A stretch of DNA of 64,000 bases from Gemmobacter sp. (GTDB taxonomy: Bacteria; Pseudomonadota; Alphaproteobacteria; Rhodobacterales; Rhodobacteraceae): contig NZ_JAUCBS010000006.1 of assembly GCF_034676705.1 (NCBI RefSeq), positions 84,960-148,959 of the forward strand, given 5' to 3'. The notes below the pieces were generated by a model. It was not told where the DNA came from, did not search any database, and saw only the letters and a program-made list of their open reading frames with translations. Below are positions 4,736 to 27,929 of the stretch, in pieces. A program made the translations under genes and the position numbers. Every line of letters starts with the position of its first letter. The first letter of the stretch is position 1.

Positions 4736-5938
<1,203 letters not shown>

Positions 5939-9283: not shown

Positions 9284-10212
9284 GGTCGGGTGTCCAGCGG
9301 ATCGGGCGCGGCGCCGGCCATCCGCGCCAGCTGGGCGGTCAGGCGGTGCAGCACGGTGTCGGGCAGGTCGTCATCCTCGGCCGGGGTATGGGTGCCGGGC
9401 CAATAGCCGCCGGCGCCGGCCCAATCCTCGCGCAGTGCGGCCAGCCGGGCGGGCCAGTCGGCCATCCCGCCATCCTGCGCCGGGTCGATCGCCAGCAGGA
9501 ACACCCCGCGCCCCTGCGCATCGCCGCGCCCGCCGCCCGCGATACCTGCCAGCAGCTCCACCACCAACCCCAGCAGCGACCCCAGCTGCCCGCCACGCGG
9601 CAGCAGCGCCGCAACCTCGGCCGCCAGGCGGGTGGGGGCACCCGCGCTGTCCAGCGCGATGCCATCGGGCAGGGGGGTTCCGCTGGCGCGGGCGCTGCGC
9701 AGGGCAGCCATGGTGGTGGCGCTGCTGGCCATGTCGATCACCACGCGGTCGGCCCCCTGACCAAGCGCCAGCGCAAAGGGGTTGGTGCCGATCACCGCCT
9801 GCTTGCCCTGCCACGGTGCGACAAAGGGCGGTCCCTCGGCCCCCGCCATGGCCACCAGCCCGCAATCCGCCAGATGCCGCACAAAGGGCGCCAGCCGGCC
9901 AAAGCCGCGCACGCCGCGCAGGAACATCGCCGCCACGCCGAACTGGCGCGCCACGGGTGCCAGGCGCAGCGTCGCATCCGCCACGGCCAGCGGCGCGAAA
10001 CAGCCGGAGCAATCCAGCCAGCTGACCGCGTGCGGGGCATCGGCCGGCGGCAAGGGCCGGGCATCGGGGGCCCATTCGCCCAGCATGTCCATGCCAAAGC
10101 GCGGCTGGCCGATCATGTCGGCCTCGATCAGCGCCAGCGCCGCCAGCCGGGCCGCGCGGCCCCCGCCAAGCGCCAGCGCCAGCCGGCCTGCCGCATCGCC
10201 CATCGTGTTCAT
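9280..10212 (-). CDS. Ldh_2 (malate/L-lactate/ureidoglycolate dehydrogenase type 2) family oxidoreductase, divergent
   Basis: ATG at 10212 (MNTMGD) lies within ORF 9280..10500 and overlaps the GntR stop (ATGA). Blocks GTNPFALA and SSATTMAAL are present. The usual HDSHG-type N-terminal motif appears replaced by GQPRFG. Confidence 0.6.
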   Translation of the reverse strand: MNTMGDAAGRLALALGGGRAARLAALALIEADMIGQPRFGMDMLGEWAPDARPLPPADAPHAVSWLDCSGCFAPLAVADATLRLAPVARQFGVAAMFLRGVRGFGRLAPFVRHLADCGLVAMAGAEGPPFVAPWQGKQAVIGTNPFALALGQGADRVVIDMASSATTMAALRSARASGTPLPDGIALDSAGAPTRLAAEVAALLPRGGQLGSLLGLVVELLAGIAGGGRGDAQGRGVFLLAIDPAQDGGMADWPARLAALREDWAGAGGYWPGTHTPAEDDDLPDTVLHRLTAQLARMAGAAPDPLDTRP

Positions 10213-10922
10213 TCCGCCGCCCCGCCCGGTTGCAGGACGCCCAGTTCCACCTCTCCGCCCGACAGGTAGCCCAGCGTCATCAGACGCTCGATCAGGAATT
10301 CGCGGCTGTGGCGGATGTGGTCGGCCTCGATCCCGGCGGCGCGGGCGCCGTCGCCGGCCTCGATGGCATCGACAAGGGCGGTATGTTCGCCGGAATGCTC
10401 GCTGACCTTGACCGTGAAGTCGATGGCAAAGCGCAGCAGGCGTTCCAGCTGGTCGAACAGGCTTTCCGACAGGGCAACCATGCGCGCATTGCGGCTGCAC
10501 CGGGCAATGGCAATGTGAAACCGGCGGGCCACCTGCTGCATCTGTTCCAGATCCATCTCGCCGGCATATTCCTGCACGATCTGGCGCAGCCGGCGGATTT
10601 CGGCCGGCGTGGCATGGCGCGCGGCCTGCCGGGCGATATGCGGGCCGATGGCCGCCCGCATGTCCAGGATTTCATGCACCGCCTGAAAGGTGATCGGCGT
10701 GACCAGATAGCCGCTGCGCGGCAGGATGGTGACCAGCCCTTCGGCCGCCAGCCGCTGCATGGCATCGCGGACGGGGGTTTTGGAAACCTTGTACTCCTCG
10801 GCGATGGATCCGGCATCCAGCGTGGCGCCGGGCGGGATGCGGCAGGTCATGATATCGCGCCGCAGCGCCTGAAAGATGCGCTCGGACACCGGGATCGTGG
10901 CGGCAGTCGTGGTCACGGTCAT
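10209..10922 (-). CDS. GntR family transcriptional regulator (FadR/FCD subfamily)
   Basis: Winged HTH: SIAEEYKVSKTPVRDAMQRLAAEGLVTILPRSGYLV. Followed by an all-helical FCD-like C-terminal domain. Confidence 0.88.
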   Translation of the reverse strand: MTVTTTAATIPVSERIFQALRRDIMTCRIPPGATLDAGSIAEEYKVSKTPVRDAMQRLAAEGLVTILPRSGYLVTPITFQAVHEILDMRAAIGPHIARQAARHATPAEIRRLRQIVQEYAGEMDLEQMQQVARRFHIAIARCSRNARMVALSESLFDQLERLLRFAIDFTVKVSEHSGEHTALVDAIEAGDGARAAGIEADHIRHSREFLIERLMTLGYLSGGEVELGVLQPGGAAE

Positions 10923-10929
10923 CTTGCCC

Positions 10930-11739
10930 TCAATGCTTGGTCCAGGGCACCAGCCGGCGTTCCAGGGCCTCCAGCGCCAGAATGGTCAGATACCCCAGCG
11001 CCGAGATGACGACGATCCCCACGAACATCCGCGACACCGCAAAGGTCTGCCACGACGCCCAGATAAAGAACCCCACCCCCGCCCGCGCGCCCAGGAACTC
11101 GGCGGCCGAGATGATGATGTAGGACGATCCTGCCGCCAGCTTCATGCCGGTGAAAATCCCGCTCATGGCCGATGGTAGCGCGATGCGGCGAAAGGTCTGG
11201 AACCGGGTCGCCCCGGCATTGCGGGCAACATCCAGGTAAATCTGCGGAATCTGCACCACGGCGCCCAGCGTGTTGTAGAACATCAGGAAGAACACCCCGA
11301 TGGCGATGACGACGTATTTCGACGCATCGCCCACGCCGAAAATCAGCAGGATCAGCGGCAGGATGGCAATCTTGGGCACCGGATACAGCGCGGCAAAGAT
11401 CGGTCCCAGCACCCGGCGCACCGGCGCCGACAAGCCCAGGATCAGCCCCAGCAGCACGCCCGGCACCAGCCCCATGGCATAGCCCACGGCAACCCGGCGC
11501 AGGGTGGCCCAGATATGGGTGAACAGTTCCAGGCTGACGATCATCTGCCAGGCGGTTCCCGCGATCACGCTGGGCGGCGGAAAGAACCGCGGGTCTATCA
11601 GCCGGCTGCGCGCCGACAGTTCCCAGACCAGCAGCAACAGCAGCGGGCTGAAATACGACAGGTTGCGATACAGCCGTTCGCGCCGCGCCGGGGCCTTGAG
11701 CCGTGCGATATCGGCGGCAGAAAGGGTCGGGGGGGTCAT
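10930..11739 (-). CDS. ABC transporter permease, NitT/TauT (SsuC-like) family
   Basis: 269-aa hydrophobic ORF. EAA-like loop is ARNAGATRFQTFRRIALP. Confidence 0.88.
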   Translation of the reverse strand: MTPPTLSAADIARLKAPARRERLYRNLSYFSPLLLLLVWELSARSRLIDPRFFPPPSVIAGTAWQMIVSLELFTHIWATLRRVAVGYAMGLVPGVLLGLILGLSAPVRRVLGPIFAALYPVPKIAILPLILLIFGVGDASKYVVIAIGVFFLMFYNTLGAVVQIPQIYLDVARNAGATRFQTFRRIALPSAMSGIFTGMKLAAGSSYIIISAAEFLGARAGVGFFIWASWQTFAVSRMFVGIVVISALGYLTILALEALERRLVPWTKH

Positions 11740-11740
11740 C

Positions 11741-12535
11741 TCAGGCCTCCGGCTTGGCCGCCAGCAGGCGCCAGACTTCGTAGGTCAAATCCCAGAACCG
11801 CTTGTCGCGCCGCAGTTCCACCACGTCGCGCGGCCGTTCGAACGGCACCGCCAGATCGGCCACGATGGTGCCGGGGCGCGGCGACATCACCAGCACGCGG
11901 TCGGCCAGGGTCAGCGCCTCGTCCACGCTGTGGGTGATGAACACCACGGTCTTGCCGGTGCGTTCCCAGATCCCCAGCAGTTCCTGTTGCAGGGTCATCC
12001 GGGTCTGTTCATCCAGCGCACCAAAGGGTTCGTCCATCAGCAGCACGTCGCGGTCATCGACCAGCGCGCGCGCCACCGACACGCGCTGCTTCATCCCGCC
12101 TGACAGCTGATGCGGCCGGGCATCGGCGAAATCGCTTAGTCCCGTCAGGGCCAGCAGTTCGGCCACCCGGGCGCGCTGCCGGTCCTTGGGCACACCTTTC
12201 AGGCTGAGCGGAAAGGCCACGTTCTGCGCCACCGTCAGCCAGGGCAGGACCGAGGCTTCCTGAAACACCATGGCCGGGGTCGTCGCGCTGTCGATCCGCA
12301 GCGACCCCGACAGCGGCTGTTCCAGCCCGGCCAGCATGCGCAATACCGTGGTCTTGCCGCAGCCGCTGGGGCCGACGATGCAGACGAATTCGCCGCGCCG
12401 CACGGTGAAGTTCACCTGCGTGGTCGCCAGCGTGATCCGGTCGCCCGAGACGTCGTAGAACGCCTTGACCAGATCCGTGACCTCGATGACGGCCGGGCCT
12501 GTCGCCCGGCTGTCGGCATGGCCCGTCACGCTCAT
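11741..12535 (-). CDS. ABC transporter ATP-binding protein, NitT/TauT family
   Basis: Walker A GPSGCGKTT, signature LSGGMKQR, Walker B LLMDEPFGALD. Start overlaps the SBP stop. Confidence 0.92.
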   Translation of the reverse strand: MSVTGHADSRATGPAVIEVTDLVKAFYDVSGDRITLATTQVNFTVRRGEFVCIVGPSGCGKTTVLRMLAGLEQPLSGSLRIDSATTPAMVFQEASVLPWLTVAQNVAFPLSLKGVPKDRQRARVAELLALTGLSDFADARPHQLSGGMKQRVSVARALVDDRDVLLMDEPFGALDEQTRMTLQQELLGIWERTGKTVVFITHSVDEALTLADRVLVMSPRPGTIVADLAVPFERPRDVVELRRDKRFWDLTYEVWRLLAAKPEA

Positions 12536-13548
12536 TCGGCGGCCAGCAGGGCGTTGGCTTTTTGCAACAGGTCCAGCCGATAGACGCTGTCGATGTTGAT
12601 CGGCCCTTCATAGGCCAGCGACCCTTGCGCGCGGAAGAAATCCTCCTGCTCGCGGACCGAGGCGATGTCGATCGACCCGTCTTCCGACCGGATCGTATAG
12701 GGAATGCCCTGCAACGTGTCCTTCGGGGTGCCGGTGTATTTCGCCACGATGTCCAGGATCGCGTCGTCCTGCCAGCCGCCATTGTCTAGCTGGCGCGCCG
12801 CCTTCAGGAAGGCCGCAAGAAAGCGCACGACGGCATCTTCGTTTTTCACCGCGAATTCGTTGTTGAACGCGATGAAGCCCAGTTCGGTGCCGAAGGTGTG
12901 GTTTTCGACCAGGCGCTTGCCCAGGCCCTGGCGTTCCAGCTGGATGGCAAAGGGCTCGATGCTCCAGCCGGCTTCCAGCCCGCCGTTGGCAAAGGCGGCG
13001 GCGGTGGCAGGGGGCGGCAGGTAGACGGGTTCGATATCGGCCAGCGTCAGCCCGCCGGTTTCCAGCGCCTTGGCGACCGAGAACATGCCAAAGCCGCCCG
13101 GCCCGGGAATGCCCACGCGCTTGCCTTTCAGGTCTTTCACCTCGCGGATGCCGGCATCCCAGGCCGCCTGCGACACCATCAGCGGCGAGGGCGAGGGCAC
13201 GGTATCGGGCATTTTCGCCAGCGTGCCGACAATGGTCACGGTGGCGCCGGAGTGGATCGAGTTGAACAGCCCCGCCCCCCAGGTGGCAGCGCCCGCCACC
13301 ACGTTGCCCGAGGCCAGCATCTGGATGGTTTCCGCCGTGCCGCTTTTGGGCGACAGGGTCACGTCCACGCCGAACTTGTCGAAATAGCCCAGATCCTCGG
13401 CGACAAAGAAGGGGGCGTAGTCGGCAAAGGGCGAATACAGGAATTCGATCCTGGCCTTGTCCTGCGCCAGCGCCGGCAGGGCGAATGTCAGGCCCAGGGC
13501 GGCAAGGCCCGCGGTCGCAAGGGTGGACCGGAATTGCATCGGAAACAT
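12532..13548 (-). CDS. ABC transporter substrate-binding protein, NMT1/THI5-like (SsuA-like)
   Basis: The ORF extends to 13557 (GTG), but the ATG at 13548 sits 8 nt after AGGAG. Signal peptide ends ALPALAQD. Confidence 0.85.
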   Translation of the reverse strand: MFPMQFRSTLATAGLAALGLTFALPALAQDKARIEFLYSPFADYAPFFVAEDLGYFDKFGVDVTLSPKSGTAETIQMLASGNVVAGAATWGAGLFNSIHSGATVTIVGTLAKMPDTVPSPSPLMVSQAAWDAGIREVKDLKGKRVGIPGPGGFGMFSVAKALETGGLTLADIEPVYLPPPATAAAFANGGLEAGWSIEPFAIQLERQGLGKRLVENHTFGTELGFIAFNNEFAVKNEDAVVRFLAAFLKAARQLDNGGWQDDAILDIVAKYTGTPKDTLQGIPYTIRSEDGSIDIASVREQEDFFRAQGSLAYEGPINIDSVYRLDLLQKANALLAAE

Positions 13549-13649
13549 TGCGCGCACTCCTGATACGTTGGCGGCGTCTGGGCCCGTCCACGGGCTGGAT
13601 TGGGGTATCGGGTTGCGGATGGCAAGCGGTTGGAAAGCTCGGAATCCGC

Positions 13650-13665
13650 ATCTGATGTATCAGAT
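13650..13665. promoter_or_regulatory. 16-bp palindrome ATCTGATGTATCAGAT in the control region of the ABC-GntR operon
   Basis: Perfect 7-bp arms (ATCTGAT/ATCAGAT), about 100 bp upstream of the SBP start, in the only AT-rich patch of the 500-bp intergenic region. Confidence 0.4.
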
Positions 13666-13953
13666 GATGACATTGATGTTTCAGTTGTCAATCAAAGATC
13701 CGGTCGCGCATGCCCTTTGGGTGAAATATGGCAGATCGCGGTGGTGCCGCCGGTATGGCACGGCAGGGTTCTTCTGCCGTGTGCCGCGTTGGGGGCAGAT
13801 CCGCGCTGTGGCCGGTTCAAGGCCGCCTGCGACCATGCCGGATCTGTCAGGGAATCGGTCGGCACGGCGGCCCGATGCTGGCATACTTCGGCACGTCACA
13901 CGGCACGGATGGGCCATGCGGCCCACCGGATCCGCCCCTGGGAAAGATACCGA

Positions 13954-13998
13954 TTGACAGCCTGGCGGGCGCCCTCATATTGTTAGTCTGCAAACGAT
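13954..13998 (+). promoter_or_regulatory. Predicted hnr promoter (TTGACA-N16-CATATT) overlapped by shared operator copy 1, ATTGTTAGTCTGCAAACGAT (13979..13998)
   Basis: TTGACA lies at 13954..13959. The 20-bp imperfect palindrome recurs at 18811..18830 and 20733..20752, with 14 of 20 positions invariant. Confidence 0.5.
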
Positions 13999-14057
13999 AT
14001 CAGCCGCCCGTTCGCGCGGTCTGCCGTTCCCCGCCGCCTCAGCAGAGAGAATGGAAC

Positions 14058-15566
14058 ATGTCCCAGCCGACAGCCGAAGCCAGGGTCAAGCCGGACAAGA
14101 TTCGCTGCGATGCCTGCCCGGTGCTGTGCTACATCGCCGAAGGCCGCAGCGGGGCCTGCGACCGTTACGCCAACCATGACGGCAACCTGATCCGGGTCGA
14201 TGCGCTGACCATCCTGCAACAGGCCGGGCCGCAGGCCGAGGCGGTGCCCTTTCTGGCCAAGGGCGATCCGGCCGACTGGGACGGCGACATCCTGGCGGCG
14301 ACGAACCCGCAGCGCTTTGTCACCGCCGTGGGCGCCGGCACCACCTACCCCGATTACAAGCCCGCCCCCTTCATCGTCAGCCAGCAGGTGGACGGGGTGG
14401 ATATGGTCACGGTCGTGACCGAGGGGATCTTCAGTTATTGCGGCGTCAAGGTAAAGATCGACACCGACCGCCACATCGGTGACGAACGCGCGGTCGTGCG
14501 GGTGGATGGCGAGCCGATCGGGCATGTCATGACCTCGGAATACGGGTCCAAGATGCTGTCGCTGGGCGGGGTCGAACATCTGACCGGCGGCAGCAAGAAG
14601 GAAGGCCGCGTCACCTGCGATGCGCTGCTGCACCTGTGCAACGGGCAGGCGGTGGAAATGACCGTCGACGACGGCGCGGTCATCGTGGTGCAGGCGGGCA
14701 AGGCGCCGATCATCGACGGCACGCCCGAACGGCTGATGCGGGTGGGCTGCGGATCGGCCACCATCGGCATCTTTGCCGCGCAATGGGCGCCGCTGGTGGA
14801 CGAGGTGGTGGTGGTGGACGACCATATCACCGGCGTCCTGTCGGAGCATCAGGCCGGCAAGATGCTGGACATGCTGCCCACCGGGATCCGCATCAAGGGC
14901 CGCAAATCCACGCCCGGGCGCTATTTCCAGGTGGCCAAACCCGGCACCGGCTGGGGCGGCACCGATATCAGCGATCCGCTGTCCATTCTGGGCGCGTTCG
15001 ATGCCAGACATGCCCGCGCGGGGCTGACGCTGCTGATGGTGTCCACCACGGGCGAACACTACGCCTATTTCGTGCTGGATGCCGATCTGGTGCCGCAACC
15101 GCAGCCGATGCCCCCGGCGCTGCTGGCTGCCGTGAACCGGGTGGCGGAAAACTGCGAACCCTCGCTGTGTTCGGTGCTGTTCATGGGCGGCGCCGGCGGG
15201 TCGCTGCGGGCGGGGGTCACGCAGAACCCGGTGCGGCTGACCAATTCGGTCAAGCAGGCGCTGACCTATGTCACCTGCGGCGGGGCCGAGGCCTATGTCT
15301 GGCCGGGCGGCGGCATCACGGTGATGGTGGATGTCATGAAAATGCCCAGCGGATCCTTTGGTTATGTGCCCACGCCGGCGCTGGTCGCGCCCATCGAATT
15401 CACCCTGCGGGTCAGCGATTATATCGAACTGGGCGGCCATGCCGACCGGATCCGCCCCCTGGCCGAGGTGCTGGCCAGCCAGTCCAACCTGCGCGAGCTG
15501 GGCCGGATAGATCCGCAGACCGACCCGCTGGCAGACCGGAACTACGCATGGCATTCGCCGCGCTGA
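14058..15566 (+). CDS. 6-hydroxynicotinate-reductase-like Fe-S (flavo)protein (Hnr family)
   Basis: ATG at 14058 is in frame within ORF 13728..15566 and follows AGAGAGAATGGAAC. N-terminal cysteine cluster is KIRCDACPVLCYIAEGRSGACDRYANHDGNLIRVD, as I recall it from proteobacterial proteins annotated as 6-hydroxynicotinate reductase. Linked to an enamidase-like gene. Confidence 0.65.
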   Translation: MSQPTAEARVKPDKIRCDACPVLCYIAEGRSGACDRYANHDGNLIRVDALTILQQAGPQAEAVPFLAKGDPADWDGDILAATNPQRFVTAVGAGTTYPDYKPAPFIVSQQVDGVDMVTVVTEGIFSYCGVKVKIDTDRHIGDERAVVRVDGEPIGHVMTSEYGSKMLSLGGVEHLTGGSKKEGRVTCDALLHLCNGQAVEMTVDDGAVIVVQAGKAPIIDGTPERLMRVGCGSATIGIFAAQWAPLVDEVVVVDDHITGVLSEHQAGKMLDMLPTGIRIKGRKSTPGRYFQVAKPGTGWGGTDISDPLSILGAFDARHARAGLTLLMVSTTGEHYAYFVLDADLVPQPQPMPPALLAAVNRVAENCEPSLCSVLFMGGAGGSLRAGVTQNPVRLTNSVKQALTYVTCGGAEAYVWPGGGITVMVDVMKMPSGSFGYVPTPALVAPIEFTLRVSDYIELGGHADRIRPLAEVLASQSNLRELGRIDPQTDPLADRNYAWHSPR

Positions 15567-16399
15567 TCGACGGGGGGCGGCGGCTGCACCTGCAACACGG
15601 GCCGATCGACCTGCTGATTTCCGCCGAAGGGCCGGGCGATGCGCGGGTGGCGGCCTTTCGGGCGGCGACGGTGCGGTTCGACGGCTTGCTGGGCGAACTG
15701 GTCGCCGAACTGCCCCTGCTGCGCGCGCCGGTCACGGCGGGGTCGCGGGTGCCCACGGGCCCGGTGGCGCGGCGGATGCATGCGGCCTGCCTGCCCCACG
15801 GCCTGCACGATTTCATCACGCCGATGGCCGCCGTCGCCGGTGCGGTGGCCGACGAGATTGCAGATGCCATGCGCGCCAGTGCCGATCTGACCCGGCTGGT
15901 GGTGAACAATGGCGGCGACATCGCCTTTGACGCGGCGCCGGGGCAGCAGATGCAGGCGCTGATCGCCACGCCAGAGGGCCGGGTGCTGGGGCAGGTCAGC
16001 CTGCCGGGGGGCGGTCCGGTGCGCGGCATGGCCACCAGCGGGCGCGGCGGGCGCAGTTTCTCGTTGGGCATCGCCGACAGCGTGACGGTGCTGGCCGAAA
16101 CCGCCGCCATGGCCGATGCCGCCGCCACGATGATCGGGAATGCGGTGGATCTGCCGGGCCATCCCGCGATCCGCCGCACCCCGGCGCAGGATCTGGCGCC
16201 CGACAGCGACCTGGGCGCGCGGCTGGTGGTGACCGGGCTGGGCGCCTTGAATGCCACGGAAACCGCCACCGCGCTGGAACGGGGGCTGGACCGGGCGCAG
16301 CACTTGCAGCGCGGCGGGCTGATCGTGGCCGCCGCGCTGTATCTTGGCGCCGACCACCGGGTGACCGGCGGCTGGCCGGGGCAACTGGGCCGCAGTTAA
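15548..16399 (+). CDS. UPF0280 family protein (ApbE-like fold)
   Basis: ATG at 15548 lies within ORF 14636..16399 and overlaps the hnr-like 3' end by 19 nt. N-terminus MAFAALIDGGRRLHLQHGPIDLLISAEG is typical of UPF0280 as I recall it. Confidence 0.6.
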   Translation: MAFAALIDGGRRLHLQHGPIDLLISAEGPGDARVAAFRAATVRFDGLLGELVAELPLLRAPVTAGSRVPTGPVARRMHAACLPHGLHDFITPMAAVAGAVADEIADAMRASADLTRLVVNNGGDIAFDAAPGQQMQALIATPEGRVLGQVSLPGGGPVRGMATSGRGGRSFSLGIADSVTVLAETAAMADAAATMIGNAVDLPGHPAIRRTPAQDLAPDSDLGARLVVTGLGALNATETATALERGLDRAQHLQRGGLIVAAALYLGADHRVTGGWPGQLGRS

Positions 16400-16980
16400 C
16401 GCAGCCCGTCCACGCCCTTGGCGTCCTTCGCCTCCAGCCCGCCGACGCGGGGGTGCGGGCGGCCGCTGTCGGTCACCGCAATCGCCACCACGATTTCATC
16501 GGGGCGCGGCGCATCGTTGAACCGGATCTCGACCCCGTCGAAGTGCGAGCGGACAAAGGCCGCATCCTTGTGGCCCAGCGGAATATCCAGATCCTGCCCC
16601 ATGCCGCCCCGCTTTTTCGACGAGGGCACAAGGGCCGCGCCCTTTTCCACCGCCTTGCGCAAAGGCGCGCCCATGCGGGGATGCAGCAGGGCGGCGGCAT
16701 GTTCCAACTCGCCATTCTCGCCGACCAGCGCGGCCTTGCCATAGCTTTCGATCTGGTGGGGCCGCACCCCCAGCGCATCGCGGGCGCGGGCGCCCAGCAG
16801 GGCGCCCAGTTCCTCGCCCATGGCCATCAGCGGTTCCAGATCCTCGGCAAACTGGCCGGCGAATGGGTTCTGGATCACCGCTGCCGCCACCGCCTTGCGG
16901 GTGGGGGGCATAACGGGACGGCCGCCTTCGACATGCACTTCCTCGACCCAGACGCCGATCTTGCGGATGCGCGCGGTCAT
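16396..16980 (-). CDS. 'Amino acid synthesis' family protein (DUF1185), copy B
   Basis: 194 aa. Blocks VIQNPFAGQFAEDL, HPRMGAPLR and SHFDGVEI. Paralogous to the adjacent ORF. Confidence 0.7.
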   Translation of the reverse strand: MTARIRKIGVWVEEVHVEGGRPVMPPTRKAVAAAVIQNPFAGQFAEDLEPLMAMGEELGALLGARARDALGVRPHQIESYGKAALVGENGELEHAAALLHPRMGAPLRKAVEKGAALVPSSKKRGGMGQDLDIPLGHKDAAFVRSHFDGVEIRFNDAPRPDEIVVAIAVTDSGRPHPRVGGLEAKDAKGVDGLR

Positions 16981-17558
16981 CTTAGCCCATCCTCGCCCTT
17001 GATCGCCGACGCAGCCAGCCCGCCGGACCGGGCATGGATGCGCGGGCCGGTGGTCATGACCAGCGCCAGCAGGATTTCATCGGCGCGCGGACTGTCGTTG
17101 GTGCCCACCTCCATCGCGTCGAAATGGCTGCGCACGTAGGAGGCGTTGATATGGGTGATCGGCACATCCAGCCGCGCCCCTGCCCCGCCCACCTTCTTGG
17201 CCGATGGCACGATGGCCCTGGCATCGCCCAGCACGCCGCGCATGGCATAGCCGCCGGGGGCATGCCACAGCGCGCCGTGTTCCAGCTCGCCTGCCGCGCC
17301 GATCAGCGCGCCCTTGCCATAGCCTTCGATCCGCGCCGCCCCGCCAAGCGCCGCGACCAGCTGGCGCGCCATGTCCAGGCCCAGCGGCTCCAGATCGGCC
17401 ATGAAGCCCTGGATATCCTCGACATAGCGCCCGGCGAAGGGGTTGGTGATCACGGCCAGCGCGGCGCCGCGCATCAGCGGGGTGGCGGCCGGCGCGCCGC
17501 CTTCGTGAAAGATTTCCTCGGTCACGAGGATGCGTTTTCTGACGTTCAGCAAGCTCAT
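16977..17558 (-). CDS. 'Amino acid synthesis' family protein (DUF1185), copy A
   Basis: 193 aa. Blocks VITNPFAGRYVEDI and SHFDAMEV. GGAGAG RBS. Stop overlaps the start of copy B (ATGA). Confidence 0.7.
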   Translation of the reverse strand: MSLLNVRKRILVTEEIFHEGGAPAATPLMRGAALAVITNPFAGRYVEDIQGFMADLEPLGLDMARQLVAALGGAARIEGYGKGALIGAAGELEHGALWHAPGGYAMRGVLGDARAIVPSAKKVGGAGARLDVPITHINASYVRSHFDAMEVGTNDSPRADEILLALVMTTGPRIHARSGGLAASAIKGEDGLR

Positions 17559-17575
17559 GCGTGGCTCTCCAGGGG

Positions 17576-18784
17576 TCAGTGATGCGGGGTGACGATCTCG
17601 GGCATGCGCTGCGATGGCGGGGTGTTGCGGCTGCGCCGGCTGCGCACGACGCCGTCGATCACCGTCATGCAGACGCCCGGCAGGTTGCCCTGTTCGACCG
17701 AGGCCAGCAGCGTCTTGCCTGGCGCATGCTGGGCCTGATCCATCAGCACGAAATCGGCGGCATAACCCTTTTCCAGCAGGCCCGCATCAAGGCCCCGCTG
17801 CCGCGCCGTATTGCCATTGGCAAAGCAGAAGGCCAGTTCCGCCGGCACGTTACCAAGGCTGGACAGCATGGCCACCATCCGCAGGATGCCCAGCGGCTGC
17901 ACCCCCGACCCGGCCGGGCCATCGGTGCCCAGGATGATGCGGTCCATCTGCTTGAGTTCGCGCGCGGTGTTCAGCGTCAGCAGCGCGGCGCGTTCGTTGC
18001 CGTTGTGAACGATCTCCAGCCCGGCCTGACAGCCTTCGCAGATGCAGATGATCTGGTCGTCGGGCAAGGCGGTGTGGCCGCCGTTGATATGGCCGACCAC
18101 ATCGGTTCCCGCCTCCAGCACCACGGCGGCGTCGATCAGGCCGGATCCGGGGATCGACGGGCCGCCGGTATGGATGGTGGACTGGATGCCGTATTTGCGG
18201 GCCCATTCCACCATCCTGCGCGCGGTCGGGCCATCCTTGACGCCGCCCAGACCGACCTCGCCCAGCAGGGTGACGCCGGCGGCGGCCAGGTCCTTGAAAT
18301 CCTGCTCGACCATCTCGGTCTCGATCACCGGGGCGCCGGCATGCACCTTGACGCCCGAGGGGCGGAAGTTCTGATACCAGCGCTGCGCCGCGATGGCCTG
18401 CGCCTTGAGCCCGACGATATCGCGCGCCCGGCCGGGCGTATGCACCTCGCCCGCCGAGATCATCGTGGTGACGCCGCCGTGCAGGGTCGAATCGATCCAG
18501 TTCAGCTGGCTTTGGCGGGGGGTGTAATCGCCCACCACCGGGTGGACATGGCTGTCGATCAGCCCGGGCGCCACCGTCACGCCCTTGGCGTCGATCAGCA
18601 GTTCGGCCCCGTCGCAATCCAGATCCTTTTCGTAGCCATAGGCCACGATGCGGCCCCCGATGGCCACGATGCAGTCGCCGTCCGCGATCGGGGCCTCGAT
18701 CTTGCCGGTCAGCAGCAGTCCGATGTTGCGGATCACCATCTTGCTGTCGGGGCCCGGAACGCCCCCCTGGGCTTCCTCTGCCAT
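17576..18784 (-). CDS. Enamidase-like amidohydrolase (Ena family, metal-dependent cyclic amidohydrolase)
   Basis: 402-aa ORF. An alternative start is at M16 (18739). Blocks VAPGLIDSHVHPVVGDYTPRQ, LHGGVTTMISAGEVH, HTGGPSIPGS, HINGG and C-terminal SRNTPPSQR closely match my memory of Eubacterium barkeri enamidase. Confidence 0.75.
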   Translation of the reverse strand: MAEEAQGGVPGPDSKMVIRNIGLLLTGKIEAPIADGDCIVAIGGRIVAYGYEKDLDCDGAELLIDAKGVTVAPGLIDSHVHPVVGDYTPRQSQLNWIDSTLHGGVTTMISAGEVHTPGRARDIVGLKAQAIAAQRWYQNFRPSGVKVHAGAPVIETEMVEQDFKDLAAAGVTLLGEVGLGGVKDGPTARRMVEWARKYGIQSTIHTGGPSIPGSGLIDAAVVLEAGTDVVGHINGGHTALPDDQIICICEGCQAGLEIVHNGNERAALLTLNTARELKQMDRIILGTDGPAGSGVQPLGILRMVAMLSSLGNVPAELAFCFANGNTARQRGLDAGLLEKGYAADFVLMDQAQHAPGKTLLASVEQGNLPGVCMTVIDGVVRSRRSRNTPPSQRMPEIVTPHH

Positions 18785-18810
18785 GTCGATCTTCCTATGA
18801 TTGGCGCAAT

Positions 18811-18830
18811 ATCGTTAGTATGCAGACGAT
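18811..18830. promoter_or_regulatory. Shared operator copy 2, ATCGTTAGTATGCAGACGAT, in the divergent ena/marR control region
   Basis: Lies 26 nt upstream of the ena start codon and 110 nt upstream of marR. Overlaps candidate -10 elements on both strands: CAATAT at 18807..18812 (+), and CATACT inside the site (-). Confidence 0.5.
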
Positions 18831-18939
18831 CTTGCCATCGGGCAAGTGGTCAGGTGCAGCCTGCGCCAGATCGGCATATTGCAATCCTGCCCGATTGCGG
18901 GCCTTGTGCTGGGGTTGCGCTGCAAGCCGGGAGAGAGAG

Positions 18940-19368
18940 ATGAGTGCCGACACCCCCAAGGACTATGTTCTGGACAGCCAGATCGGCTTTCTTCTGCGGC
19001 AGGCAACCCAGCGCAATTCGCAGATCTTTCAGCGGCATACGTTCGACGACCTGACCACGACCCAGTTTTCCGCGCTGTTCCGGCTGGTGACGATGGGCGA
19101 ATGTTCCCAGAACGAACTGGGCCGGCGCACCGCCATGGACGTGGCCACCATCAAGGGCGTCGTCGACCGGCTGCGCAAGAAGGGTTACATCGCCACGCGC
19201 GAGGACGAGAACGACCGCCGCCGCACCCTGCTGTGCATCGCCCCCGGGCACGAGGGGCTGCGCGAACGGCTGTCCGATCTGGGCACCAGGGTGACCAACG
19301 AAACGCTGGGCACGCTGAACGCCGCGGATCGCCGGCAGCTGCTGGACCTGCTGGGCAAGATCATCTGA
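18940..19368 (+). CDS. MarR family transcriptional regulator
   Basis: ATG at 18940 lies within ORF 18820..19368 and follows GGGAGAGAGAG. Winged HTH is QFSALFRLVTMGECSQNELGRRTAMDVATIKGVVDRLRKKGYIATREDENDRRR. Confidence 0.88.
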   Translation: MSADTPKDYVLDSQIGFLLRQATQRNSQIFQRHTFDDLTTTQFSALFRLVTMGECSQNELGRRTAMDVATIKGVVDRLRKKGYIATREDENDRRRTLLCIAPGHEGLRERLSDLGTRVTNETLGTLNAADRRQLLDLLGKII

Positions 19369-19387
19369 CACCGTTGCAACGCCGGGC

Positions 19388-19428
19388 TTGACAGGGCCGG
19401 ATTTCCGCTATTTCATTCGTATACGAAT
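19388..19428 (+). promoter_or_regulatory. Predicted fdxA promoter (TTGACA-N17-TTTCAT) with the perfect 14-bp palindrome ATTCGTATACGAAT (19415..19428)
   Basis: TTGACA lies at 19388..19393. The palindrome overlaps the -10/+1 region, 22 nt upstream of the fdxA ATG. Confidence 0.45.
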
Positions 19429-19449
19429 AAATATCGGGGCCAGCCGCAG

Positions 19450-19779
19450 ATGACCTATGTCGTGACCGATGCCTGCGTGAACTGCAAATATACCGATTGC
19501 GTCGAGGTTTGCCCGGTGGATTGCTTTTACGAAGGCGCCAACATGCTGGCGATCCACCCGGACGAATGCATCGACTGCGGCGTCTGCGAACCGGAATGCC
19601 CGGTCGATGCGATCCGCCCGGATACCGAGGTGGCAGACAGCCCCTGGCTGGCGCTGAACGCCCGCATGGCCGCGATCTGGCCCAACCTGAACACCCGCAA
19701 GGATCCGATGCCCGCGCATGACCATTGGGCCGGCGTGGCCGACAAGATCGCGCTGGTTTGCGAAACCGCCCCTTCCTGA
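19450..19779 (+). CDS. fdxA: 7Fe ferredoxin ([3Fe-4S][4Fe-4S], Azotobacter/Rhodobacter FdII type)
   Basis: [28 protein letters not shown]...[20 protein letters not shown]. Confidence 0.93.
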
Positions 19780-19818
19780 CCCTGCCGCGCCACAGGCGCG
19801 CCCAGCCGGACATCCGCC

Positions 19819-20631
19819 ATGACCGATACCATCCTTCAGCCTGCGACCTATCCCATCCCTGCCAACTGCTTTGCGCAGACCGTGACCGAGGTGCAGCACC
19901 ATACCGACCGGCTGTTCCGGTTCCGCATCACCCGGCCATCCAGTTTCCGGTTCCGGTCGGGGGAATTCGTGATGATCGGCCTGCCCAATGCCGAACGCCC
20001 CGTCATGCGGGCCTATTCCATCGCCTCGTCGGCATGGGAGGAGACGATCGAGTTCTATTCGATCAAGGTTCCCGGCGGCCCGCTGACCGAAAGCCTGCAA
20101 CGCATCCGCGAAGGCGATACCGTGCTGATGCGCAAGAAGCCTACGGGCACGCTGGTGCTGGACGCGCTGTTGCCGGGCAAGCGGCTGTGGATGTTTTCCA
20201 CCGGCACCGGGATTGCCCCCTTCGCCTCGTTGATCCGCGAGTTCGAGACCTATGAGAAATTCGGTCAGGTGATCCTGACCCACACCTGCCGCGACGTGGC
20301 CGAACTGGCCTATGGCGAGGCGTTGATGGCCGGGATCCGCGCCGATGACACCCTGTCCGAGATGGTCGGCGACAAGCTGCGGTTGTACAACACCGTCACC
20401 CGCGACGCCGCATTTCCCCGTCAGGGCCGCATCACCGATCTGATGACAGGCGGCCGGATCTTTGCCGATCTGGGGGTGCCCCCGATCACGCCCGAAACCG
20501 ACCGCGGCATGATCTGCGGGTCGATGGCGATGCTGCGTGACACCAAGGCGGTGCTGGAGAGATTCGGCCTGACCGAGGGCGCGAACAGCAGCCCCGGAAC
20601 CTTTGTCGTTGAACGCGCCTTTGTGGACTGA
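19819..20631 (+). CDS. fpr: Ferredoxin--NADP(+) reductase, bacterial subclass I (Fpr)
   Basis: Blocks FRFRSGEFVMIGL, RAYSIAS, GTGIAPFASL and the C-terminus FVVERAFVD. Confidence 0.9.
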   Translation: MTDTILQPATYPIPANCFAQTVTEVQHHTDRLFRFRITRPSSFRFRSGEFVMIGLPNAERPVMRAYSIASSAWEETIEFYSIKVPGGPLTESLQRIREGDTVLMRKKPTGTLVLDALLPGKRLWMFSTGTGIAPFASLIREFETYEKFGQVILTHTCRDVAELAYGEALMAGIRADDTLSEMVGDKLRLYNTVTRDAAFPRQGRITDLMTGGRIFADLGVPPITPETDRGMICGSMAMLRDTKAVLERFGLTEGANSSPGTFVVERAFVD

Positions 20632-20705
20632 TCCTGATTTTTGATCAACGTTTCCGGCATGTTGTGCCATGGATCGGCAAGATTGGAATACAGCCGGCAT
20701 ACCAC

Positions 20706-20752
20706 TTGACAGGCAGAATCATCCATGCGTTAATCGTTAGAATGCAAACAAA
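20706..20752 (+). promoter_or_regulatory. Predicted promoter of the 11-kb operon (TTGACA-N17-GTTAAT) overlapped by shared operator copy 3, ATCGTTAGAATGCAAACAAA (20733..20752)
   Basis: TTGACA at 20706..20711 and GTTAAT at 20729..20734. The operator begins inside the -10 element, the same geometry as at hnr. Confidence 0.5.
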
Positions 20753-20847
20753 AATACACCTCGGCCGGCCCTCTGGGTCACGCCGGAAAGGTGATGCAGC
20801 AGATGCGCCAGCAACGGTCTGGCAATGACCACAGGGGGTCGTGAAAG

Positions 20848-22164
20848 ATGGGTTCTGTCCGTCAGATGCGCTTGGTTGCCTATTCGAAAACCGGGCCGAC
20901 GGCGCGTCACATGGGGGGCTGGCGCCACCCGGAATCGATGCTGGACGATTTTCTGACCCCGGCTCGCTATGCGCAATACGCCCGCACGCTGGAAGATGCC
21001 AAGTTCGATGGCTGCTTCTTTGCCGACCTGATCGGGATCTACGACATCTACGGCGGCAACTATGACACATATGTCCGCAACGGCGGGCAGATCAGCTATC
21101 TGGATCCCAAGGTCGTGCTGCCGGTGATGGCGGCGGCGACCAGCCATCTGGGGCTGGGCATCACGCTGTCGACCACCTTTCACAACGCCTATCACCTGTC
21201 GCGCTGGCTGCAATCGCTGGATGTCCTCAGCAATGGCCGGGCCGCGTGGAACGTGGTCACCTCGGCTGCCGAGCTGGAGGCGCAGAATGTCGGCGCCACC
21301 CTGCCGCCGCGCAACGAACGCTATGACCGCGCGGACGAATTCCTTGAGGCGTGTTTTGCCCTGTGGAACAGCTGGGATGAGGATGCCTTTGTCCTCGACA
21401 AGGAAAAGGGCGTCTTTGCCGACCCGGCCAAGGTGCATTACGTGAACTATTCCGGCCGCTGGACCAGCGCGCGCGGACCCCTGCCCACGCCGCGCAGCCC
21501 GCAGGGGCGGCCGGTCATCATGCAGGCCGGCAGTTCCGACCGCGGCCGCGATTTTGCCGCCCGCTGGGCCGAGGCGATCTTTACCGACCAGCGCACCCTG
21601 CCCGCGCTGAAGGCATTCTACGACGACATCAAGACGCGCATGGTTGCCCATGGCCGACGGCCGGAACACTGCGCCATCCTGCAAGCCAGCACCTTCGTGA
21701 TCGGCGAAACCGAATCCATCGCCCGCGAACGCGCCGCCTATCTGAAAAGTCTGGTAATGCCCGAAACCTGGGCCGCCCGGGTTTCCGGCAGCCTGGGGGC
21801 CGATGTCAGCAAGATTCAGACCGAACAGGATCTGGCCGCGCTGCAAGGCAACCAGGGCATCCGGGGTGCCGAAGACCGCATCCACCAGACCGTCCGGGAA
21901 AAGGGCATGACCCTTGCCGAAGCCGCCGTCGATGACAAGAACGACGAAATCGTCGGCACACCGTCGCAGGTGGCTGACCACCTGCAACACATCTTCGAAA
22001 GCGGCGCCTGCGACGGCTTCATCGTGGCGCCGACCTATTTCCCTGGCATGATCGAACAGTTCTGCCGCTCGGTCGTGCCGGAACTGCAACGGCGGGGCCT
22101 GTTCCGCAAGGAATATACCGGCAAAACCCTGCGGGAAAATCTGCTGGGGGTCGCAGCCGCCTGA
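20848..22164 (+). CDS. LLM-class flavin-dependent monooxygenase, NtaA/SnaA/DszA/SoxA family (copy 1)
   Basis: 438 aa. Blocks MRLVAYSKTGPTARHMGGWRHP, AAWNVVTS, RYDRADEFLE and a C-terminus ending FRKEYTGKTLRENL. An alternative start is at 20866. Confidence 0.85.
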   Translation: MGSVRQMRLVAYSKTGPTARHMGGWRHPESMLDDFLTPARYAQYARTLEDAKFDGCFFADLIGIYDIYGGNYDTYVRNGGQISYLDPKVVLPVMAAATSHLGLGITLSTTFHNAYHLSRWLQSLDVLSNGRAAWNVVTSAAELEAQNVGATLPPRNERYDRADEFLEACFALWNSWDEDAFVLDKEKGVFADPAKVHYVNYSGRWTSARGPLPTPRSPQGRPVIMQAGSSDRGRDFAARWAEAIFTDQRTLPALKAFYDDIKTRMVAHGRRPEHCAILQASTFVIGETESIARERAAYLKSLVMPETWAARVSGSLGADVSKIQTEQDLAALQGNQGIRGAEDRIHQTVREKGMTLAEAAVDDKNDEIVGTPSQVADHLQHIFESGACDGFIVAPTYFPGMIEQFCRSVVPELQRRGLFRKEYTGKTLRENLLGVAAA

Positions 22165-22240
22165 GTTTACGTTACGACAACGAGAGGCCGGAAAAAATCC
22201 GGCCCGGCCACCAACAGTCCAACCAGGAGAGACAGCCGCC

Positions 22241-23110
22241 ATGTCGGTTTTGAACCAAGTCAGGAAATTCTCGCTTGTCGCCACGCTGGCGATCAGCAGC
22301 CTTGCCACCGCCGCAACCGCCCAGACCATCGCCGCAGACGAGGCCGCGCGGGCGGCCCTGCCGGAAAACGTGCGCGCCGGGGGCGAGCTGCTGGTGGCCA
22401 CGTCGCTGCAATGGGCCCCCTTCGCCTATCGCTCTGCCAGCAACGAGGCGGTGGGCATCGACATCAGCCTGATGAACATCATCGCAGGCAAGCTGGGCCT
22501 GACCGCCAAGCTGGACGACATCAAGTTCCCCACCATCGTGCCGGGCGTGTCGACCGGGCGCTATCATGTGGGCGTCAACCAGCTGTCCATCACCAAGGAA
22601 CGTCTGGCCGCCGTCGACATGGTGCCCTATTTCATCACCACCAGCGTGGTGCTGGTGCAAAAGGGCAAGACGGACATCGACATCAACAACCTGTGCGGCA
22701 AGACCTTTGTCGTGACGCAAGGCAGCGTGCAGGTGACCCAGCTGGAAGAAGTGTCGAAGGCCTGCGAGGCCCGCGGGGCACAGCCGATCACCCAGCAGCT
22801 TTATCCCAGCAGCGCCGAAACCCTGCTGGCCGTGGCCAACGGGCGGGGCGATGCCTTTCTGACCGCCGCGCCGCAGGCCCATTACATCGCCAGCGTCAAC
22901 GACAAGGTCGAGGTGATCCCCGGCGATGTGAACGTGTCGCGCGCGCCCGCCGGCATCGTGGTGGAAAAGGGCAATGCCGCCATGCGCAAGGCCGTGGGGC
23001 TGGCCCTGATCAGCGCGATCAACGACGGGTCGTATCAGGCGCTGCTGGACGAATACGGCGTCGGGTCCGGTGCGGTTCCGGTGGATACCATCCGCGCCGC
23101 CATCGAATGA
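22241..23110 (+). CDS. Polar amino-acid-type ABC transporter substrate-binding protein (SBP family 3)
   Basis: AGGAGA RBS. Signal peptide ends ATAATAQT. GIDISLMNIIAGKLGL block. Confidence 0.85.
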   Translation: MSVLNQVRKFSLVATLAISSLATAATAQTIAADEAARAALPENVRAGGELLVATSLQWAPFAYRSASNEAVGIDISLMNIIAGKLGLTAKLDDIKFPTIVPGVSTGRYHVGVNQLSITKERLAAVDMVPYFITTSVVLVQKGKTDIDINNLCGKTFVVTQGSVQVTQLEEVSKACEARGAQPITQQLYPSSAETLLAVANGRGDAFLTAAPQAHYIASVNDKVEVIPGDVNVSRAPAGIVVEKGNAAMRKAVGLALISAINDGSYQALLDEYGVGSGAVPVDTIRAAIE

Positions 23111-23206
23111 TGTGCCCTTCGGCGGACCAGTCGTGATGGTCCGCCGGTTCCAGCCATGTGCGGGCGCCCGGCCGGGCGCGATTCCCTGCAAGCGAAAGGG
23201 ACAGTC

Positions 23207-24105
23207 ATGTCCACAAGTCCTGATGCCGATGCGAAAAGCTGGCCCGGAGCGGACTCGGCGGCCGAGCAGATCGTCGATCCGCGGCATTATGGTCGCTGGG
23301 TGGCGGTCGCCGCCGTGGCGCTGTTCCTGATCTGGGTTGCCTATCAGCTTGTCACCAATGACGGTTTCCAGTGGGAGATCGTCTTCAGCTACCTGTTCCA
23401 CCCCAACGTGCTGCGCGGCATCCTGATGACCTTGCAGCTGACGGTTCTGGTCATGGCGATCGGGGTGGTCATCGGCATTGTCGTAGCCCTGATGAAGATG
23501 TCGCGCGATCCGCTGCTGAACGGCGTTGCGCATGGCTTCGTGTGGTTCTTTCGCGGCACGCCGGTGCTGGTGCAGCTGGTGTTCTGGTACAACCTGGCGG
23601 CGCTGTTCCCCATGCTGTCGCTGGGCATCCCGTTCGACGGGCCGAAGTTCTATGAAATCTCGGCCACGGTGGCGATTTCGTCGTTCACGGCTGCCATGCT
23701 GGGGCTTGGCCTGAACGAAGGCGCCTATATGGCGGAAATCATCCGCGCCGGGTTGCTGTCGGTCGACCATGGCCAGACCGAGGCATCCAAGGCGCTTGGC
23801 CACAAGCCGCGCCAGACGTTTTTCGTGGTCGTGCTGCCCCAGGCGATGAAGGCGATCATCCCGCCCACCGGCAACCAGTTCATCGGCATGCTGAAATTCA
23901 CCTCGCTGGCCAGCATCGTGGCGGTACATGAACTGATGCATTCGGTCGAATCCATCTACAACCGCACCTATGAAACGATGCCGCTGCTGATCGTCGCGGC
24001 GCTGTGGTACTTGTTCATGGTCAGCATCCTGTCGGTGGTGCAGTATTTCATCGAACGCCATTACCTCAAGGGCTGGCGGTCCGAGATCCCGACGCCGGTG
24101 CAAGC

Positions 24106-24109
<4 letters not shown>
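23207..24109 (+). CDS. Amino-acid ABC transporter permease (HisM/GlnP type)
   Basis: ATG at 23207 lies within ORF 23156..24109 and follows AAGGGA. EAA loop is EASKALGHKPRQTFFVVVLPQA. Confidence 0.85.
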
Positions 24110-24933
<824 letters not shown>

Positions 24934-24960
24934 CCTGAGCAAGGTTTCGGAGAGAAGACC

Positions 24961-26265
24961 ATGCAGAAAATGATGCATCTGGGCTCGCTGTCGCATGGCG
25001 TGGGCGCCCATGTTGCCGGCTGGCGGCTGCCGGGGGCCGAAACGCACAAGGAACGGCTGTCTGTCGTCGTCCATGCGGTAAAGACGGCGGAACGCGGCAA
25101 GTTCGACCTGGTGTTCTTTGCCGATGCCGTCAACACCGGCGCCGATGCCGCGCCCAGCTTCGTGGTGCGGTTCGAACCCCTGACCCTGCTGGGCGCGCTG
25201 TCGGCGCTGACCGACCGGATCGGGCTGGTTGCCACCGTATCGACCACCTATTCCGAACCCTACAACGTGGCGCGGGCGCTGGCCTCGCTGGATCATCTGT
25301 CGCAGGGGCGGGTGGGCTGGAACGTCGTCACCGGATCCAGCCCCGATGCCGCTGCCAACTTTTCCCGCGACAAGCACCCGCCGCATGACGAACGCTATGC
25401 CCAGGCCGAGGAATACCTTCAGGTTGCCAAGGGCCTGTGGGACAGCTGGGAAGATGGCGCCGTGGTGGCCGACAAGAACAGCGGCGTCTACATCGACCCC
25501 GGCAAGATGCACGAGCTGAACCATTCGGGCCGGTTCTTCAAGGTGAAAGGCCCGCTGAACGCCAGCCGCCCGCCGCAGGGCTACCCGGTGATCTTTCAGG
25601 CCGGGGCATCGGATCGCGGCATGGAATTTGCCGGCGCCACCGCCGAGGTGGTGTTCGCCACCCAGTCGTTCGTCGAGGATGCGCTGGAGTTTTCCCGCAA
25701 GCTGCGCGACCAGGCCGAGGCGGCGGGGCGCCCGCGCGATGCCCTGCGCATCCTGCTGGGGGTGTCGCCCATCATCGGCGACACCGAGGAAGAGGCCCAT
25801 GCCATCATCGCCCGGCTGGGCGAGATGGTGGATCCGGTCACCTCGATGCGGGTGCTGTCGGACCGGATCGGCACCGACCTTGGCCAGTTCGACCTGGACG
25901 GCCCGCTGCCCGACCTGCCGCCCTCGACCATGATGCAGGGCCATGCCCGGGTGCTGCAAGCCATCGCCAAACGGCGCAACATGACCATCCGGCAGTTGCG
26001 CGATTATGCGGCGGTCAGTTCCGGCCACCGGGTGGTGGTCGGCACGCCGGTGCAGGTGGCCGACGATCTGGAACACTGGTTCCGCAGCGGCGCCTGCGAC
26101 GGCTTTGCCATCATGGCGCCCTACATGCCGCAACCGTTCGAGGATTTCGTCGACAAGGTCGTGCCGATCCTTCAGGACCGCGGGCTGTTCCGCAAGGAAT
26201 ACGCCGGCACCACCCTGCGCGACCATCTGGGGCTGGACCGGCCCGCCCATCCGGCTGCGGTCTGA
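24961..26265 (+). CDS. LLM-class flavin-dependent monooxygenase, NtaA/SnaA/DszA/SoxA family (copy 2)
   Basis: 434 aa. Blocks MHLGSLSHGVGAHVAGWRLP, VGWNVVTGS, RYAQAEEYLQ and FRKEYAGTTLRDHL. Confidence 0.85.
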   Translation: MQKMMHLGSLSHGVGAHVAGWRLPGAETHKERLSVVVHAVKTAERGKFDLVFFADAVNTGADAAPSFVVRFEPLTLLGALSALTDRIGLVATVSTTYSEPYNVARALASLDHLSQGRVGWNVVTGSSPDAAANFSRDKHPPHDERYAQAEEYLQVAKGLWDSWEDGAVVADKNSGVYIDPGKMHELNHSGRFFKVKGPLNASRPPQGYPVIFQAGASDRGMEFAGATAEVVFATQSFVEDALEFSRKLRDQAEAAGRPRDALRILLGVSPIIGDTEEEAHAIIARLGEMVDPVTSMRVLSDRIGTDLGQFDLDGPLPDLPPSTMMQGHARVLQAIAKRRNMTIRQLRDYAAVSSGHRVVVGTPVQVADDLEHWFRSGACDGFAIMAPYMPQPFEDFVDKVVPILQDRGLFRKEYAGTTLRDHLGLDRPAHPAAV

Positions 26266-26267
26266 TC

Positions 26268-27383: not shown

Positions 27384-27387
27384 CCCG

Positions 27388-27924: not shown

Positions 27925-27929
27925 GCGCC

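Follow-up and report, generated by a model that had tools for sequence, protein, structure and literature searches.

Near-palindromic sites over the predicted promoters of a nicotinate-breakdown gene cluster in Gemmobacter are predicted operators of its NicR/BpsR-type MarR regulator

The DNA analyzed here, a 64,000-nucleotide stretch of Gemmobacter sp. (NCBI RefSeq assembly GCF_034676705.1, contig NZ_JAUCBS010000006.1, positions 84,960 to 148,959; hereafter the window), carries a gene for a MarR-family regulator (marR); no more than 13 kb away from it are hnr, ena, fdx/fnr, and nicAB. These genes encode a 6-hydroxynicotinate reductase, an enamidase-like amidohydrolase, a ferredoxin with its ferredoxin-NADP reductase, and a nicotinate hydroxylase, respectively, and were mapped by Pfam and NCBIfam searches together with annotated plasmid relatives (Table 1). 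Spread among them are four copies of a 20-bp near-palindrome. The initial annotation, made from the sequence alone, had described three copies, with 14 of 20 positions invariant and half-sites forming an inverted repeat, and had seen no further full copy in the other intergenic regions of the window. Its three 20-mers were all found where it had placed them, on the plus strand; direct counting over the three gave the same 14 of 20, and the half-sites proved complementary at 7/8 positions. The count of three was wrong, as a matrix scan detected a fourth copy between the marR stop codon and the ferredoxin gene, whose start codon lies 18 nt downstream. This site 4 is the most palindromic of the set (9/10 positions) and also comes closest to the family consensus. 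The near-palindrome is thus confirmed as real, with four copies rather than three.

Since the window has a G+C content of ~68%, an AT-rich 20-mer recurring three times is unlikely to have arisen by chance. When the degenerate pattern was searched with up to three mismatches, only sites 1-3 were matched in the 64 kb, for an expectation of 0.13, and 0 of 100 shuffles reached three matches. We also iterated a palindromic weight matrix on related loci and built its final version only from their 165 unique sites, yielding the consensus wTyrTTwGyATrCwAAyrAw, in which T5, T6, and G8 and the mirror positions C13, A15, and A16 were the most informative. Applied to the window, this matrix gave exactly four matches, at 22-30 bits, with all else below 8 bits; in 100 shuffled windows, the maxima averaged 4.1 bits, and the highest was 18.9 bits. 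The motif also emerged from an unseeded count of 7-mers upstream of Ena orthologues, where the top 7-mers were pieces of it (such as TAGCATA, ATACTAA, and GTTAGTA), enriched 22-46x. A search for the best palindrome in the same upstream DNA was noisy, with GC-rich chance palindromes competing, and performed less well than the 7-mer enrichment; all of its 9/10 and 10/10 palindromes were nonetheless the motif. An Rfam search of positions 13500-21000 for an RNA element at the sites gave no match even at E ≤ 1.

The palindromes overlap the predicted promoters of the catabolic operons, either beginning 18-21 nt after a -35 box or containing the -10 element. In the window, the gap from a perfect TTGACA to the palindrome is 19 nt at site 1, 18 nt at site 4, and 21 nt at site 3, while site 2 covers a minus-strand -10, that of ena. 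Orthologous promoters were searched for a hexamer matching TTGACA at ≥5/6 positions. For the Hnr, XDH, Fdx, and FNR genes, its end lies 17-21 nt upstream of the site. At Ena genes it ends 11 nt before the site, and the -10 (TAGyAT) therefore falls inside the predicted operator. Because the sites stand at a fixed distance past the -35, each covers the -10/+1 region of its predicted promoter, which is where a repressor would be expected to bind. Transcription is predicted to start at ~13988-13990 (plus strand), ~18810 (minus strand), ~19423-19425 (plus strand), and ~20741-20745 (plus strand). The initial annotation had read the sites as repressor operators, and these comparative data, both the conservation and the fixed -35 distance, agree with it. 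It had further reported, at hnr and at the first luciferase-like monooxygenase gene (LLM1), a perfect TTGACA followed by a -10-like hexamer that the site overlaps. This stands for hnr, where CATATT overlaps site 1. At LLM1, the TTGACA is present, but the hexamer 17 nt after it, GTTAAT (20729-20734), is only a weak -10, matching at 4/6 positions and lacking the canonical A2; it overlaps site 3 by 2 nt.

To follow the motif across genomes, we assembled 83 related loci: 80 were found by searching species-representative genomes with an alignment of MarR, and three, on plasmids, by hnr DNA similarity. The 80 were mostly from Rhodobacterales, with a few from Hyphomicrobiales, Rhodospirillales, and Burkholderiales. 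In 62-68 of the 83 loci, MarR occurs together with genes for Hnr, UPF0280, the AA_synth pair, and Ena; a site of ≥15 bits was found in 77/83. The scan of orthologous loci, a check that the initial annotation had proposed, found the motif kept beside orthologous genes; its copies occur at orthologous promoters in several alphaproteobacterial orders as well as in a metagenome-assembled genome of the Burkholderiaceae. The sites also avoid coding DNA: 153 of 193 fall outside crude open reading frame calls that span 80% of the DNA (p=1.6e-70), and since the gene caller runs each frame to its longest start, the 40/193 coding sites are an upper bound. In a close relative (L106), whose MarR is 86% identical, sites 2, 4, and 3 are identical at 20/20, 19/20, and 19/20 positions, respectively, the two substitutions are confined to positions 7 and 14, both degenerate, and the -35 boxes have been kept even as the intergenic DNA around them has drifted.

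We also recorded which gene lies directly downstream of each site. Ena was the commonest (44 loci), followed by MarR (25 loci), FNR (16 loci), and Fdx (13 loci, with the site ~20 nt before the gene). The FAD subunit of an XDH-type (nicotinate) dehydrogenase and an AMP-dependent ligase each occurred in 8 loci, an SDR in 7, and Hnr and a family III CoA-transferase in 6 each; solute-binding proteins recurred as well. As judged from these annotations, the downstream genes form a coherent predicted regulon for nicotinate catabolism.

We then considered the protein likely to bind. The window MarR is a winged-helix protein; it matches Pfam MarR/MarR_2 and aligns with PDB 2NNN (E=2.4e-27) and with BpsR of Bordetella (PDB 6PCP, E=9.2e-22 over residues 6-140; 6PCO also matched, E ~1e-21). 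Its relatives carry database names such as "NicR" and "lower aerobic nicotinate degradation pathway regulator." BpsR contacts its ligand through Tyr15, His23, Arg26, and His32 (PMC6837509), which align with Y9, F17, R20, and N26 of the window MarR. Across 21 family members, Y9 and R20 do not vary, and the residue at position 26 is His in most. The recognition helix, AMDVATIKGVVDRL, is almost invariant across the family, loci without the motif included. Co-variation of this helix with motif presence was tried as a further line of evidence and set aside as non-discriminating, the helix being unchanged in motif-less loci.

For a test independent of MarR-based selection, we used 22 metagenome loci chosen via Hnr and a motif cut-off of ≥20 bits. 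The motif was present in 5/7 loci with MarR vs 1/15 without (Fisher p=0.0043), and in the sole locus with the motif but without MarR, the contig ends just after hnr. Both this co-occurrence and the homology to BpsR speak for the binder that the initial annotation had judged the obvious candidate, the adjacent MarR. Together, these results suggest that the four near-palindromes are very probably operators of the window MarR, acting as a NicR/BpsR-type repressor of the nicotinate-breakdown operons. From sequence comparison we infer that MarR binds and that it represses instead of activating, and likewise which effector it uses, where transcription starts, and how far the operons extend.

Several observations weigh against this interpretation. 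The 80 genome loci were chosen via MarR, so that its presence there is by construction, and the Hnr-selected test is small, with several of its 22 loci on short contigs. No site above 6 bits was seen in six MarR loci (L038, L053, L071, L079, L080, and L083), of which five have the cluster, or in two Hnr-selected loci with MarR (L092 and L097), the recognition helix being unchanged in all of these; their promoters may fall outside the DNA retrieved, or these loci may be regulated differently. Only 2/4 of the BpsR contacts for 6-hydroxynicotinate are kept in the window MarR, where most orthologues keep 3. Three of the window promoters have weak -10 hexamers, and the promoter scan made no call at the LLM promoter. 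Finally, the shape of the motif alone cannot name the regulator family, because its GT-N2-AC core also fits the operators of GntR-family proteins.

It is improbable, in our view, that some other unlinked transcription factor, either a global or a second pathway regulator, binds the sites while MarR recognizes something else. Such a factor would fit the six MarR-bearing loci without the motif, and in P. putida the nic genes are under a pair of regulators, NicR and NicS; however, the motif tracks MarR in the Hnr-selected loci, at least 25 loci have a site between the divergent ena and marR genes, and no recurring gene for another regulator was seen, GntR being the only one searched for explicitly.

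Some MarR-family proteins act as activators, and the placement of site 2, 110 nt upstream of the marR start, is compatible with activation of marR. That MarR binds the sites as an activator or dual regulator rather than as a simple repressor nevertheless appears very unlikely, given that the sites begin 11-21 nt past the -35 and cover -10/+1 at all four window promoters and at their orthologues, a polymerase-blocking position, and that the characterized homolog BpsR is a repressor (PMC6837509).

The initial annotation had offered the GntR/FCD regulator encoded ~3 kb from site 1 as an alternative binder; that regulator would then control the nicotinate genes. GntR-family operators follow the pattern t.GT..AC.a, which the motif core TTwGTATACwAA resembles, and consensus positions 6-15 (TwGyATrCwA) fit the form t.GT-N(0-3)-AC.a, a form that is itself non-specific. 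A GntR-like gene was matched by tblastn (E ≤ 0.01) in only 4/105 related loci, however, while the motif is present in most; the window gene comes last in another operon, for an ABC transporter, which has a separate predicted promoter (13691-13664) and a palindrome of its own (13650-13665), and no copy of the motif lies at that promoter. MarR is therefore favored over GntR because of co-occurrence, not because of motif shape, and control of the sites by GntR seems less likely still. The palindrome beside the GntR operon, ATCTGATGTATCAGAT, is a 7+7 inverted repeat just past the minus-strand promoter (TTGACA, 16 nt, CATCAT) that would drive an operon of NMT1-type solute-binding protein, ATPase, permease, and GntR; it is a candidate GntR operator. 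Last, although AT-rich promoters may resemble one another in a genome of 68% GC and sites 1-3 share one orientation, we ruled out a non-regulatory repeat, whether chance AT-rich similarity or a small mobile or REP-like element, as scarcely credible, since chance predicts 0.13 matches, shuffles never reach 22 bits, no repeat structure flanks the sites, and the motif is kept with fixed geometry at orthologous promoters across several orders.

With the MarR-repressor interpretation thus preferred, the four sites would act as follows. A dimeric MarR repressor on each site would occlude RNA polymerase at four promoters, each with a -35 box of the sigma-70 type just ahead of the site. Judging by gene arrangement, P_hnr would serve hnr and the UPF0280 gene, likely an operon under site 1; P_ena, divergent from marR, would serve ena and the two AA_synth genes, likely an operon under site 2; and P_fdx would serve the ferredoxin and ferredoxin-reductase genes, likely an operon under site 4 and presumed to supply electrons to Hnr. 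P_llm would transcribe LLM1, an ABC transporter, LLM2, Zn-ADH, an isochorismatase-family gene, and nicAB; because this nine-gene run is tightly packed, site 3 probably heads an 11-kb operon extending from LLM1 through the nicotinate hydroxylase genes. Autoregulation of marR through site 2 is plausible; no convincing marR promoter overlapped by site 2 was found, and we therefore go no further than to infer it. A pathway intermediate would bind the regulator, which would leave the DNA and turn the whole pathway on together. The route would run from nicotinate via 6-hydroxynicotinate and tetrahydro-6-oxonicotinate to 2-formylglutarate, and the intermediate would most likely be 6-hydroxynicotinate, the product of NicAB and substrate of Hnr. 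This assignment follows from homology to BpsR; the effector is uncertain because His23 and His32 are replaced by Phe and Asn in the window MarR, and an effector other than 6-hydroxynicotinate may be used.

Table 1. Predicted operators, promoters, and genes of the window, with the repeats found in two BpsR-type loci (positions in the last two rows are those of loci L112 and L113).
Feature	Position	Strand	Details
Operator site 1, ATTGTTAGTCTGCAAACGAT	13979-13998	+ (as read)	predicted operator; overlaps -10 and predicted +1 of hnr promoter; 25.5 bits
Operator site 2, ATCGTTAGTATGCAGACGAT	18811-18830	+ (as read)	predicted operator; divergent ena/marR region; 22.2 bits
Operator site 3, ATCGTTAGAATGCAAACAAA	20733-20752	+ (as read)	predicted operator; upstream of LLM1; 26.3 bits
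Operator site 4, TTCATTCGTATACGAATAAA	19412-19431		predicted operator; between marR stop codon and ferredoxin gene; 30.1 bits
hnr promoter, predicted	13954-13981	+	-35 TTGACA 13954-13959, 16-nt spacer, -10 CATATT 13976-13981; promoter scan, 10/12 matches
ena promoter, predicted		-	-35 TTGCCC 18845-18840, 17-nt spacer, -10 CATACT 18822-18817 inside site 2
Ferredoxin promoter -35	19388-19393	+	perfect TTGACA; kept in L106
LLM promoter -35	20706-20711	+	perfect TTGACA; kept in L106
ABC transporter operon ending in GntR/FCD regulator (10209-10922)	10209-13557	-	
hnr, 6-hydroxynicotinate reductase	14058-15566	+	plasmid orthologues annotated as 6-hydroxynicotinate reductase
UPF0280 gene	15548-16399	+	NCBIfam NF003322
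Two PF06684 AA_synth genes	16977-17558, 16396-16980	-	Pfam
ena, enamidase-like amidohydrolase	17576-18784	-	Pfam
marR, MarR-family regulator (NicR/BpsR-like)	18940-19368	+	proposed binder; Pfam
Ferredoxin	19450-19779	+	Pfam, NCBIfam
Ferredoxin-NADP reductase	19819-20631	+	Pfam, NCBIfam
Nine-gene tight run, LLM1 to nicB	20848-31852	+	Pfam, NCBIfam
LLM1	20848-22164	+	
Solute-binding protein	22241-23110	+	
Permease	23156-24109	+	
ATPase	24106-24933	+	
LLM2	24961-26265	+	
Zn-ADH	26268-27383	+	
Isochorismatase-family gene	27388-27924	+	
nicA	27942-28424	+	tblastn to plasmid CP031593.1, 62% identity
nicB	28421-31852	+	tblastn to plasmid CP031593.1, 58% identity
aagCGTATACGctc-form repeats, L112	6530-6545, 6688-6703, 13278-13293, 13409-13424		candidate BpsR operators
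aagCGTATACGctc-form repeats, L113	6442-6457, 6620-6635		candidate BpsR operators

The LLM-to-nicAB gene order is the same on the Paracoccaceae plasmid CP031593.1 (L114, 41523-51373), where the site upstream of the operon is weak, with a degenerate right half (12.8 bits). Membership of the LLM-nicAB run in the regulon is therefore weakly supported beyond the close relatives L106 and L107. The same plasmid carries a different palindrome, CTTGTATAATAGGATACAAG, upstream of the first LLM gene (L114 ~5297-5320) and adjoining a gene for a CytR/LacI-type regulator; it may point to a second regulator for the LLM operon there. In the window, LLM1 and LLM2 belong to the NtaA/DmoA family, and the ABC importer in the nicAB run is of the amino-acid type. 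Between site 3 and the LLM1 start lies a 95-nt leader (20753-20847) that is well kept in L106 and gave no Rfam match. Its 16-codon upstream open reading frame (20794-20844) is not kept in L106, which has ATG TAG there, so that if the leader has a function, it would lie in the nucleotide sequence or the RNA.

Two observations concern the window farther from the sites. Rfam matched the window only once, at a TPP riboswitch (RF00059, 50276-50382, minus strand), with 64.2 bits and above the gathering score. On the same strand, 51151-54746 holds hydantoinase/acetophenone-carboxylase-like genes that are 31-32% identical to apc3/apc4, which adjoin hnr on CP031593.1.

We regard as evenly balanced the broader proposal that the motif marks an undescribed, widely conserved NicR-type regulon for a hybrid NicAB plus Hnr/enamidase pathway of marine and soil Alphaproteobacteria, with an operator that doubles as the ena -10 and with proteins of unknown role tied to pyridine-ring catabolism. 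If it is true, the regulon would link the PF06684 pair, UPF0280, the two NtaA/DmoA monooxygenases, the ABC importer, a CoA-transferase, a CoA-ligase, and an SDR to pyridine-ring catabolism, providing a candidate list for unassigned pathway steps and possibly for a second substrate; the AA_synth pair and UPF0280 are candidates for such steps or for accessory subunits of Hnr. For nicotinate catabolism by the reductive branch in Alphaproteobacteria, the analysis offers a regulon that can be put to the test, with a consensus, four predicted promoters, and a likely repressor. It would also place nicAB under the same switch as hnr and ena, which should aid annotation and help set priorities for knockouts.

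Among known systems, BpsR is the closest point of comparison. In Bordetella it represses the nic genes, and 6-hydroxynicotinate, by abolishing its binding, frees it from DNA (PMC6837509). The two regulators are homologous MarR proteins (PDB 6PCO/6PCP for BpsR) encoded among nicotinate catabolic genes, and the equivalents of Tyr15 and Arg26 are invariant in the window family; in contrast, His23 and His32 correspond to Phe and Asn in the window MarR, and BpsR controls a maleamate-type aerobic pathway (nicC/D/E/F/X), whereas the window locus encodes the Hnr/enamidase route. In two BpsR-type loci, on Paraburkholderia and Pseudomonas plasmids, the bpsR/nicC intergenic DNA contains repeats of the aagCGTATACGctc form, which are candidate BpsR operators. 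These share the GTATAC center with the window motif, but their flanks differ, and the window-family matrix scores them at ≤8.6 bits (two loci). The shared center fits related regulators with diverged half-sites, as far as these few examples go.

In P. putida KT2440, NicR represses nicCDEFTP and nicXR and is induced by 6-hydroxynicotinate. The likeness to the window regulator lies in the MarR family, in the same regulatory logic, and in the NicR name borne by relatives of the window MarR. Jimenez et al. in 2011 reportedly described a second, TetR-type regulator, NicS, for nicAB in P. putida, whereas nicAB of the window appears to lie behind a NicR-type site. P. putida NicR is without the ligand residues of BpsR (PMC6837509).

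The nicotinate fermentation of Eubacterium barkeri (hnr, ena) and the Azorhizobium-type pathway use the same enzymes, Hnr and an enamidase-like amidohydrolase, but this likeness concerns the enzymes, not the switch. We know of no operator described for clusters of the Hnr/enamidase type, and a literature search for one found none. No operator for this regulator is given in PMC10269826 or PMC5343134. Our findings leave the understanding of such switches unchanged, as both Pseudomonas and Bordetella are already known to have MarR repressors responsive to 6-hydroxynicotinate; the window switch, though a well-supported prediction, is likewise of an ordinary bacterial kind.

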